DNA from: Nitrosopumilaceae archaeon
GTDB taxonomy: Archaea; Thermoproteota; Nitrososphaeria; Nitrososphaerales; Nitrosopumilaceae
DNA: 64,000 nt
Reading direction: 5' to 3'
NCBI GenBank assembly: GCA_965207375.1
Contig: OZ242274.1
Location: 768,001 to 832,000 of the forward strand
Below the pieces are notes generated by a model. That model had not been told where the DNA came from, made no database searches, and saw only the letters and a list, made by a program, of their open reading frames with translations. Shown piece after piece: positions 54,145 through 55,904 of the stretch; positions within the stretch are counted from its first letter, which is position 1; every line of letters starts with the position of its first letter. Position numbers and translations under genes: made by a program.

Positions 54145-55014
54145 ATGAAGATAGCCAGATTAGGATATGAAAATAAGGAAACCTATGGCATTGTAAGGGG
54201 AGACAAGGTTGCAACAAGGGATGAGATAATTTATTCCACAGGAGTTCCAATTCCTACAAGCATTAAGGATTTTTTATTTGACGGATGGCTAGAAGAGATC
54301 AAATCAAATCTATCAGAGATCAAATATGCAGCCGAGCTGTCCAAATACAGAATTTTACACCCCATTGCCAATCCTGCAAAGATTGTGTGTCTAGCGTTTA
54401 ACTATGTTGACCATGCAAAAGAGCAAAATCTGAGTCCCCCAAAAGACCCCGCACTAGTCATCAAACCAAGAACTGCACTGACAGGTACAAATTCAGACAT
54501 CGTCTATCCAGAATTTGTAACGAAATTAGATTACGAGGTGGAACTAGCTCTAGTCATGGGTAAAACCGTCAAAAATATAGAAGTATCAAAGGTAGAAGAT
54601 GCCATATTTGGATACATGGTATTCAACGATGTGTCTGCAAGAGACCTGCAATTCAAAGACGGGCAGTTTACAAGGGGAAAGGGATGTGATACGTTTGCAC
54701 CATGCGGGCCATGGATTACAACAAAAGACGAGATTGTAAATCCGCATGAGCTAAAACTTGTGACAAAGATTAACGGTAAGTTAAGACAGAATTCATCCAC
54801 AAGCAACATGTTTATCAAAATTCCAGAAATCGTTTCAAAGATAAGTAAATGCATGACAATTGAGAGAGGAGACATAATTTCAACTGGGACACCTGCAGGA
54901 GTAATGTTGAACAAGCCTGGTGCGGTATTTTTAAAAGATGGGGACGAAATAGAGATGGAGATAGAAAATTTGGGAAAGCTGTACAACACGGTAAGAAAAG
55001 CAAGTGCATCTTGA
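54145..55014 (+). CDS. Fumarylacetoacetate hydrolase family protein
   Basis: NYVDH, DYEVEL, NDVSARDLQ, GDIISTGTPAGV. Confidence 0.93.
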   Translation: MKIARLGYENKETYGIVRGDKVATRDEIIYSTGVPIPTSIKDFLFDGWLEEIKSNLSEIKYAAELSKYRILHPIANPAKIVCLAFNYVDHAKEQNLSPPKDPALVIKPRTALTGTNSDIVYPEFVTKLDYEVELALVMGKTVKNIEVSKVEDAIFGYMVFNDVSARDLQFKDGQFTRGKGCDTFAPCGPWITTKDEIVNPHELKLVTKINGKLRQNSSTSNMFIKIPEIVSKISKCMTIERGDIISTGTPAGVMLNKPGAVFLKDGDEIEMEIENLGKLYNTVRKASAS

Positions 55015-55059
55015 GTTAATCAGCTAAGCCAAATGTGGCCCAAATCCTACCATAGCTGA

Positions 55060-55158
55060 GGCTTGGACTGACATATTAATTCAAAATCTATTTGTACTTT
55101 GAAAACTAGTTTACCGTGTCCTGATTCTATTTCGCATCTTGATATAATCGTGGATTGT
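55060..55158 (-). repeat. 99-bp inverted repeat, right arm (weaker similarity extends to 55019)
   Basis: See left arm. Confidence 0.92.
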
Positions 55159-55190
55159 ACCATGACACAATGGTAGATACTGTATTTTAG

Positions 55191-55261
55191 TGGACTAGCC
55201 GGGTATCGATCCCAGATCTCCTAGGTTTCAGTTAGGGACATGTCCTTCATGCTACTAGCCC
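55191..55261 (-). tRNA. Atypical tRNA-like gene: Ala-type acceptor (G3:U70, A73) with GAA anticodon
   Basis: GGGCTAG TA GCAT-GAAGGAC-ATGT C CCTAA-CTGAAAC-CTAGG AGAT CTGGG-ATCGATA-CCCGG CTAGTCC A; 71-nt cloverleaf with an A31:C39 mismatch. Confidence 0.72.
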
Positions 55262-55300
55262 ACACGATTTTATGAAAAACAGTGTAAATGTATTAGGTTC

Positions 55301-55405
55301 CAATTGACGTACATACTCAGGTCGTAAATTTTTCAGATATGAAATTTTCATGCCTGTTCAAAATCTAGGCATAGAATCATAGGCGACCTGAGTATGTGCC
55401 AATTG
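55301..55405. repeat. Long imperfect palindrome / hairpin
   Basis: acatactcaggtcg (55311-24) / cgacctgagtatgt (55384-97); inner atgcct/aggcat; outer caattg at both ends. Confidence 0.7.
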
Positions 55406-55904
55406 ACCGTATTGTAGAATATAGTAAATCAAAGACATATATCATAGATTAGATAACATATCATAAGGTTTCAGTTGGGGTTAGTCAACGTGCTAATCTC
55501 TTTTTTCAGTTTTACTTGGTTGATAGTAATTGTATAAACTCCAGACATCAATTTCAGACAGCTAAGCAAAATGTGGATAAAATAGGTCAAAATCTACCAC
55601 AAAGTGCAAAGAACAACAGGGATAGATTAAGAATTTGGGTTACATTTCGCTAGCTACACACAGCTATTGTGTTATATAATGGCTCATCTTCACTATGATC
55701 TCTCCGTTACGTAACATCTTCAATATGTATTTCTTAATTTCATTTGCAGCATCGTGTAATAATTTCAAAAAAATTGAAATTGTAGATTCTCCTATTATGG
55801 TGTTTCTCATGCCTGATTGCGCAGATTCTGGGTTCAATTCTTTTTTAAAATTCTTGCCCATACTATATAGAACTTGTATGTAATCAGTTATACTAGATGC
55901 AATA

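Follow-up and report, generated by a model that had tools for sequence, protein, structure and literature searches.

In all domains tRNA-Ala is marked by the G3:U70 pair together with A73, G1-C72 and G2-C71, and alanyl-tRNA synthetase (AlaRS) ignores the anticodon (PMC9976931). This text concerns a tRNA-like gene that joins the alanine identity set to a phenylalanine anticodon (GAA), and a small antisense RNA gene beside it, in an archaeon of the family Nitrosopumilaceae. Both lie in a stretch of 64,000 nucleotides, here called the window, which equals C1:768001-832000 (C1 is contig OZ242274.1) of a 4.30-Mb, 4-contig assembly (GCA_965207375.1, genome G000). We are highly confident that a conserved tRNA/antisense pair exists, and its function is discussed below with more reserve.

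Natural tRNAs whose charging identity and anticodon are discordant are rare and debated. In yeast, the harm done by tRNA-Ala(GAA) depends on its dose (PMC10543346). The tRNA-Ala anticodon variants described there share with the archaeal gene an alanine identity set and a non-alanine anticodon, but they are laboratory constructs or human variants, whereas the archaeal family is natural, conserved and multi-copy, combines a weakened anticodon stem with an antisense gene of its own, and is predicted to be charged with alanine. Bacterial allo-tRNAs (Mukai et al., PMC5389517) also combine an anticodon-blind identity (Ser, Ala) with anticodons for other amino acids; they were harmful when expressed in E. 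coli and lay near toxin-antitoxin loci and transposon genes, and the word "antisense" is absent from the main text of that report. Their acceptor/T geometry is 8/4 or 9/3, while the archaeal family has the standard 7/5 (a 7-bp acceptor and a 5-bp T stem in the window gene), so the archaeal tRNA-likes are not allo-tRNAs. In addition, bacterial tRNAPro variants with non-proline anticodons have been described as a natural family proposed to mistranslate on purpose (PMC10404621).

On the side of control systems, the CreT toxins of CreTA (type VIII) hit translation by sequestering tRNA (PMC8501985). CreTA and the type I systems resemble the archaeal module in having two adjacent small genes, an RNA that neutralizes a harmful partner (here proposed), a sporadic distribution and cognate specificity. 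In the archaeal module, however, the presumed toxin would be a tRNA, and its antitoxin would base-pair with it directly, where CreA works through Cascade and type I antitoxins on an mRNA. The tRNA-like domain of tmRNA is similar in that a non-canonical, tRNA-like RNA carries an alanine acceptor with G3:U70. However, tmRNA is a bacterial RNA that includes a reading frame and has no anticodon arm, whereas the window RNA forms a full cloverleaf of 71 nt, anticodon included. The module thus looks like a combination of known kinds, a mistranslating tRNA and antisense control of the toxin-antitoxin type.

The tRNA-like gene

Read on the minus strand from 55261 to 55191, the gene consists of the acceptor strand GGGCUAG, UA, the D stem GCAU/AUGU around GAAGGAC (with G14), a single C, the anticodon stem CCUAA/CUAGG around the loop CUGAAAC, the variable loop AGAU, the T stem CUGGG/CCCGG with its loop, the acceptor strand CUAGUCC and A. 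The acceptor provides G1-C72, G2-C71 and G3:U70. All cloverleaf details listed in the initial annotation (acceptor, stems, loops, A31:C39, G14, A37 and T loop) could be read from the sequence, and so could the combination of alanine identity with an anticodon for another amino acid.

ARAGORN reported the gene as tRNA-Phe(gaa) at 55190-55261(-). Rfam RF00005 matched it from 55191 to 55261 over model positions 1-71 with 38.9 bits (gathering 29, E 1.3e-06), which makes it a member of that family; this score came from a 701-base search, and a filtered gathering search of the whole window missed the gene. The minimum free energy fold is a cloverleaf with a 4-bp anticodon stem and a 9-nt loop (-21.3 kcal/mol, z -1.18). 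Since fold energy alone is not significant at this z, the case for more than chance rests on the homologues. Taken together with them, the window cloverleaf is a real tRNA-like.

Contig C1 holds a near-complete tRNA set, including canonical tRNA-Ala with CGC, GGC and UGC anticodons and a canonical tRNA-Phe(GAA) at C1 1921024-1921100, which begins with GCCAGGG and has the loop CUGAAGA, G37 and an encoded CCA. The canonical Ala and Phe sets of the genome are complete, a point on which the initial annotation had sought an answer. As a canonical tRNA-Ala the window gene has the identity set, but not an NGC anticodon. An assignment to archaeal tRNA-Phe was rejected, because A37 stands in place of G37 and the acceptor and arms are unlike those of the genome's own tRNA-Phe, although GAA is present.

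The antisense partner gene

Beside nearly every member of the family a second small gene was identified, which starts with a 15-17-nt stretch complementary to the anticodon arm of its own copy and continues with a hairpin and an oligo-T run. Within 160 nt of the tRNA-like, 27 of 31 loci had a second match to the copy's own 15-nt arm core, scoring at least 12/15; it was direct at -46..-50 in 18 of these loci and inverted at +32..+52 in 6. Non-cognate arms averaged 9.7/15. With these 160-nt flanks the window copy reached 10/15, and its partner was found with a wider flank. The same recurrence was seen in 17/19 members found by a covariance model and in 21/32 metagenomic cloverleaves. Among the 60 ARAGORN tRNAs of the genome, a copy of the own arm at 14/15 or better was confined to six alanine-type odd tRNAs, and the canonical tRNAs of C1 gave 7-10.

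The order of parts was constant in 27 modules: a TATA-like box, about 25 nt, the complementary core, the hairpin and oligo-T. A TATA-like 8-mer stood 27-31 nt before the core in 27/27 modules, compared with 171/5000 random genome positions. In the canonical tRNAs of the genome this box lies mostly at -35..-29 with its mode at -31, from which the 5' end of the small RNA would fall at about the complement of tRNA positions 39-40. A T5-9 run followed 16-32 nt past the core in 26/27 modules, and divergent and tandem layouts would give an identical RNA product.

Predicted duplexes were far stronger between cognate members (-44.9 +/- 7.0 kcal/mol) than between non-cognate ones (-25.4 +/- 5.9), and the cognate partner ranked first for 25/27. 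In all of 38 modules the neighbouring gene held the complement of the seven anticodon-loop bases. The share of tRNA positions able to pair in these modules was 1.00 for the anticodon loop, 0.93 for tRNA 27-31, 0.79 for 39-43, 0.91 for 8-9, 0.93 for the 5' D-stem strand and 0.48 for the acceptor strand. The initial annotation had suggested a non-ribosomal alanine donor whose anticodon drifts freely. Free drift does not agree with six anticodon types only and a whole-loop complement in 38/38 modules, and the latter points to an anticodon that matters, not to a non-decoding donor.

The window pair shows the same kind of relation. The seed of its antisense gene is complementary to the anticodon arm of the window tRNA-like, and the duplex of the two (-39.0 kcal/mol) is the best among the genome's 60 ARAGORN tRNAs, the next being -27.3. 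In the predicted fold of the antisense RNA (z -2.86) the first 13 nt are free and a hairpin and U6 follow, and its gene was the sole terminator-like site reported in 55000-55700. Of the traits of a toxin-antitoxin module, adjacency and cognate complementarity of the two genes were seen by sequence across the family, and specific binding and neutralization would be predicted.

The partner might also be what a local duplication of the tRNA 5' half left behind, neutral and without function, and it does equal, on the other strand, a diverged copy of tRNA-like nucleotides 1-43. This origin would not account for a conservation as uneven as a seed predicts (loop against acceptor strand), for promoter-like and terminator signals kept at fixed distances in 27/27 and 26/27 modules, for one RNA product from two layouts, or for an arrangement kept across genera and in a DPANN lineage. 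It also meets paralogues with different anticodons, each of which has its matching copy. In the same-genus genome G004, four near-identical paralogues (AAG, AAG, GAG and GAA) owe most of their differences to the anticodon arm, and the arm of each is matched by the sequence of its own partner copy, which a neutral leftover does not predict. A mere leftover is therefore considered very improbable.

A C/D-box guide reading of the partner RNA of one paralogue (copy b, below) was dropped, as CUGA does not stand beside the anticodon complement when judged by eye against the box consensus. In the literature searched, supplements lying outside its scope, no description was found of a tRNA gene that has an antisense partner of its own.

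Conservation and distribution of the family

The pattern GGGC...U8...YUGAAA...UCRA...UCCA was run on 401 genomes of the family Nitrosopumilaceae. This GAA-type form gave 17 matches in 12 genomes, and 28 matches in 14 genomes were obtained when A, G or T was allowed at position 36; the reversed control gave 0 in both cases. A covariance model built from 34 members and run on 141 Nitrosopumilus genomes gave about 33 matches in 15 genomes that scored higher than tRNA-Ala(UGC), whose plateau is at 69.3-69.4 bits. The patterns fixed G1-C4, U70-A73, U33 and A37; the model is less biased, but was built from pattern matches.

The G3:U70/A73 set is present in 34/34 pattern-found members, by search design. 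Among the 19 model matches that the patterns had missed, G3:U70 was present in 18 and A73 in all 19, with anticodons GAA (6), AAG (6), GAG (2), GUC (3, plus one ambiguous) and GAU (1). Relatives and at least one DPANN genome hold dozens of tRNA-likes with this identity set, among which six anticodon types were seen, GAA, AAG, GAG, CAG, GAU and GUC. Relatives thus keep G3:U70 while their anticodons differ, as the initial annotation had predicted for a non-decoding role.

In the alignment of the 34 members, 95.4% of cloverleaf cells were paired, against 73.4% in shuffles (0/500 reached the observed value) and at most 51.7% when partners were slid. Changes on both sides were found for 14 of 21 pairs; pairs 1-4 were invariant, but these had been fixed by the search patterns. 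Position 31:39 is unpaired in 23/34 members and A37 is present in 34/34. The features that had been called deviations in the window copy are therefore real, but they are family traits and not defects; G14 and the A54 T loop likewise occur in the closest homologue (G017:C1:1564349-1564419). Some model-found members have C33 or G32.

A tRNA pseudogene, or a decaying tRNA-Ala, had been left open by the initial annotation. The paired cells, the pairs with double changes and the homologues in several genera speak against it. In addition, the two genes left of the tRNA-like, for GluRS and an FAA hydrolase, have about 70% DNA identity in the same-genus genomes G001 and G004, and no tRNA was reported by ARAGORN at the syntenic site in same-genus relatives (loci L037-L040), so the window tRNA-like is not a decayed resident tRNA-Ala. 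From the sequences, the family appears to keep the mismatch of identity and anticodon under selection.

A scan across prokaryotes with one genome per species gave 58 stretches, of which 13 were cloverleaves by a pairing check and 45 were chance non-cloverleaf matches, mostly bacterial. Ten of the 13 belonged to Nitrosopumilaceae, and one metagenome-assembled genome (MAG) each of Methanosarcinales, Nanoarchaeota and Pacearchaeota supplied the others. The Pacearchaeota (DPANN) MAG carries a tRNA-like/partner module as well. Viral contigs gave 2 stretches, 1 of them a bacterial-type cloverleaf without a partner copy.

DDE_3 and IS240 transposases were present within 5 kb of 13/32 loci. Contexts of +/-5 kb held no recurring protein partner, synthetase paralogue, aminoacyl-tRNA-dependent transferase, nuclease or integrase. 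The archaeal modules differ in this from the bacterial tRNAPro variants, which reportedly depend on a dedicated ProRS paralogue. An integrase attachment site was rejected as an explanation, since no integrase recurs in these contexts and DDE transposases only were seen.

Several further observations were made around these loci. IS630-type (DDE_3) transposases occur near the tRNA-like modules in relatives. Small reading frames with two CxxC pairs, zinc-ribbon-like by eye, end just upstream of the tRNA-like in several Nitrosopumilus loci (G017 L077, G518 L079 and G481 L071/L073). Bacterial-looking tRNA-Phe genes with G3:U70 and A73 were found at the metagenome or viral loci L173, L177, L210, L216, L231, L233 and L244, one of them on an IMG/VR viral contig; they have a GCUCAG...GAGC D arm and the loop CUGAAAA, and no antisense copy was found near them.

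Paralogous copies in the genome

Seven further copies of the alanine-type odd tRNA-like (b-h) exist in the genome. Copies b-f are five more genes called Phe-GAA by ARAGORN on C1, with the acceptor GGGCCUG/CAGGUCC-A, and a profile search added copy g (Leu-AAG in ARAGORN), a degenerate copy h and two 3' fragments. About 110 nt upstream are common to b-f and hold an apparent second, degenerate tRNA 5' half, whose anticodon-arm part matches the downstream tRNA at each of these loci; across b-h, about 110 nt upstream and about 100 nt downstream are shared. The tRNA-like is damaged in 3 of the 8 genome copies: in c and e the partner gene beside it still matches, and in h tRNA-like and partner alike have diverged.

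An nhmmer profile built on b-f gave no match to the window copy at E up to 1, and by sequence the latter represents a separate sub-lineage. Its closest relatives are G017:C1:1564349-1564419, G481:C2:457938-458008 and the metagenome loci L200, L202 and L249, which have in common with it the D arm, the AGAU variable loop and, in part, the A54 T loop.

The two 3' fragments of the b type (C1:1344852-1344933(-) and C1:1437742-1437829(-)) run from the T arm onward, and the same conserved stretch of about 100 nt comes after each of them. One is found in direct orientation 3.6 kb upstream of copy b and resembles the ends of a duplicated or integrated segment. At least 8 genes on C1 encode secreted proteins of 680-710 aa with long poly-Q tracts and internal repeats (e.g. 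L001:4575-6626(-) and L006:2815-4944(-)); they are partly in tandem and adjoin the tRNA-likes b, c and g. The 683- and 709-aa proteins next to b and g had no match in Pfam.

Proposed function of the module

We tentatively propose, as a plausible reading, that the module is a toxin-antitoxin-like pair, in which a stable mistranslating tRNA charged with alanine would be restrained by its cognate antisense RNA. The first gene would give an alanine-identity tRNA with a foreign anticodon, here that of Phe, and its charging with alanine by AlaRS is proposed because this enzyme does not read the anticodon. The window tRNA-like would then insert Ala at UUY codons, and members of the family could read UUY, CUN, AUY or GAY codons as Ala. 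The second gene would give an RNA of about 45 nt from its own promoter-like box to an oligo-T terminator. The 5' end of this RNA is predicted to pair with the loop and stem of the anticodon arm in its cognate tRNA-like, and less tightly with nucleotides 8-13 and the remaining 5' half, which would mask the anticodon, unfold the tRNA and stop decoding. The module could be of the addiction or the abortive infection type. Transcription of both genes, charging, decoding, toxicity and neutralization are all inferred from sequence. For harm by such a tRNA, yeast tRNA-Ala(GAA) and the allo-tRNAs offer an indirect precedent.

The habit of the family has features of toxin-antitoxin or defence systems: it is sporadic and multi-copy, has transposases nearby, is present in DPANN, shows matched diversification of paralogues, and keeps the partner in two of the three damaged copies of the genome. 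In its full form the proposal, possible but doubtful, is an all-RNA addiction or defence module of ammonia-oxidizing and some DPANN archaea, with an Ala-tRNA toxin that would misread Phe, Leu, Ile or Asp codons, an antisense antitoxin of about 45 nt, and arms and seeds that would have diversified together for orthogonality.

The same architecture could also serve a regulated mistranslation or tuning of translation, in which small, antisense-controlled doses of the tRNA, for example under stress, would alter the proteome or slow chosen codons instead of poisoning the cell; in this it would be like the bacterial tRNAPro variants. The unpaired 31:39 of 23/34 members would lower decoding efficiency, giving a hint in this direction, and natural mistranslating tRNA families have been published for bacteria (PMC10404621). 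A housekeeping use of this sort is, however, hard to match with 12-14 of 401 family genomes by pattern and with the want of a conserved protein partner within +/-5 kb, and the multi-copy state, the decaying copies, the transposase surroundings and the unrelated DPANN lineage fit a selfish or defence module better. We consider tuning unlikely.

A role outside decoding was also weighed, either as an alanine donor for a non-ribosomal reaction, as a decoy or sensor for an anticodon-directed nuclease, or as a processing or recombination signal, with the antisense RNA regulating amount or fold. The anticodon arm departs from the norms of decoders (31:39 mismatch, A37, some C33 or G32), the 3' fragments with about 100 nt downstream recur in the genome as at recombination sites, and copies b-h lie beside the repeated gene for the secreted poly-Q protein. 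Yet no aminoacyl-tRNA-dependent transferase, nuclease or integrase recurs beside the modules, and the anticodon is constrained to six types with all seven loop bases complemented in 38/38 modules. The alanine identity set, kept in 18/19 model-found members, would be needless for a decoy or a recombination site. The probability of a non-decoding role is thus low.

Several points weigh against the toxin-antitoxin proposal. The 31:39 mismatch, A37 in place of the archaeal G37, and C33 or G32 could mean poor or no decoding. The GUC (Asp) anticodon breaks a rule of hydrophobic residues only, one member (L266) has A3:U70, and the conservation of acceptor, U33 and A37 is partly circular in the pattern-found sets. 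Intact tRNA-likes without a detectable partner were seen at L072 and L087, and at L052 and L093, which are at contig ends. Serine-type odd tRNAs without a detectable partner (next section) suggest that identity-mismatched tRNAs may be tolerated unguarded. Finally, an intact-looking window tRNA-like stands beside a partner that lacks the usual promoter geometry, which is awkward for a strong toxin unless the window copy is silent or the RNAs of other paralogues cross-protect.

Serine-type odd tRNAs

Type II tRNAs with G73 (serine-type) and Phe, Ile or Leu anticodons were also observed. Seryl-tRNA synthetase (SerRS) is anticodon-blind as well. Two are present in the genome of the window, at C1:1677242-1677326(+) and C1:1996875-1996976(+), both with GAA and G37 and one with a 14-nt intron. 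In relatives (loci L152-L171) 24 matches were found in 18/401 family genomes, with 0 in the reversed control; their anticodons were GAA (14), GAU (4), UAU (3), UAA (1), CAA (1) and AAG (1). No nearby copy of the anticodon arm was found for the tRNAs of relatives (at most 11/15), and RNAduplex runs of the serine-type tRNAs against 170-nt flanks gave own and control energies alike. Upstream of the tRNA at C1:1677242, its anticodon and variable arms recur in part as an antisense copy that ends in T5.

State of the window copy

The features around the window tRNA-like are given in Table 1. Both the antisense gene and the insertion that holds a miniature inverted-repeat transposable element (MITE) lay outside the part covered by the initial annotation.

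Table 1. Features of the window tRNA-like/antisense locus, in window positions.
Feature	Position	Strand	Description
tRNA-like gene	55191..55261	-	Ala identity set, anticodon GAA, A37, A31.C39 mismatch, T loop AUCGAUA; CCA not encoded (sequence 3' of A73)
Upstream spacer	55262..55299	-	38 nt, A/T-rich; corresponds to the common spacer in which intact modules carry both promoter-like boxes
MITE-like insertion	55300..55409		About 25-nt terminal inverted repeats CCAATTGACGTACATACTCAGGTCG ... CGACCTGAGTATGTGCCAATTGACCG; from blastn of the flank and sequence
Extra spacer	55410..55463		54 nt between MITE and antisense gene, of unexplained origin
Antisense small-RNA gene	55464..55506	+	Putative; seed UAAGGUUUCAGUUGGGG 55464-55480, 9-bp hairpin 55477-55500, T6 run 55501-55506
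Second short repeated element	55017..55109		About 80 nt downstream of the tRNA-like; many C1 copies (blastn), depth
Third short repeated element	55558..55655		Beyond the antisense gene; blastn, depth

The window tRNA-like is 202 nt from its partner, compared with the usual 35 or so, because of the insertion holding the MITE. The 91-nt core of this element (55309-55399) has dozens of copies on C1, and the summed contig depth was raised in bins 55303-55395. The segment 55129-55800 was identical in contigs from three DNA runs, among which no MITE-free joint was seen. The best TATA-like 8-mer of the tRNA-like matches 7/8 at -18 and not at the usual -31, and no TATA-like box was found at the usual -28 of the antisense gene. 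The plus-strand end of the upstream spacer, TTAGGTT (55293-55299), is similar to the 7 nt with which the antisense gene begins. Since the insertion parts the antisense gene from its usual promoter position, the window copy may be partly or wholly inactive, and its regulation is probably impaired.

The idea that the tRNA-like itself belongs to a multi-copy MITE or tRNA-derived repeat was rejected: no other genomic match covers it, and the repeats are separate adjacent MITEs. At least 3 families of MITE-like repeats of 90-110 nt, each with tens of copies, were noticed on C1.

The window copy alone might be a dead remnant, inactivated by the MITE-bearing insertion and with both genes drifting, while the family may work elsewhere. 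Such a state would suit the widened spacing, the missing or displaced promoter-like boxes, the three short repeated elements within a 650-nt intergenic region and the same-genus relatives that have no tRNA at the site. It would not be expected to leave every cloverleaf stem intact, with seed, hairpin and T6 all present, nor a pair whose members are still each other's best match among the tRNAs of the genome. We regard a dead copy as rather unlikely; it is compatible with any functional reading of the family, including the toxin-antitoxin one.

Remaining contigs

Contigs C2, C3 and C4 sum to 2.1 Mb at 36.7-36.9% GC and have 14 tRNA genes only, partly clustered (Thr x3 with Gln; Arg x5). One tRNA-Ser on them is eukaryote-like by eye, and C1 repeats had no blastn match to C2-C4 among the matches listed. 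These contigs may belong to another replicon or organism.

Significance

If the toxin-antitoxin proposal does not hold, the conserved tRNA/antisense pair still demands an explanation. If it is true, this would be, as far as the literature was searched, the first case of a tRNA that acts as a toxin and of one controlled by an antisense gene of its own, and the orthogonal tRNA/anti-tRNA pairs might be used in synthetic biology. To our knowledge, few toxin-antitoxin or defence systems of this sort are known in the abundant nitrifiers of sea and soil. The proposal, if true, would bring to the toxin-antitoxin and defence repertoire a new toxin mechanism, mistranslation across the proteome by a tRNA, together with a new RNA-RNA control.

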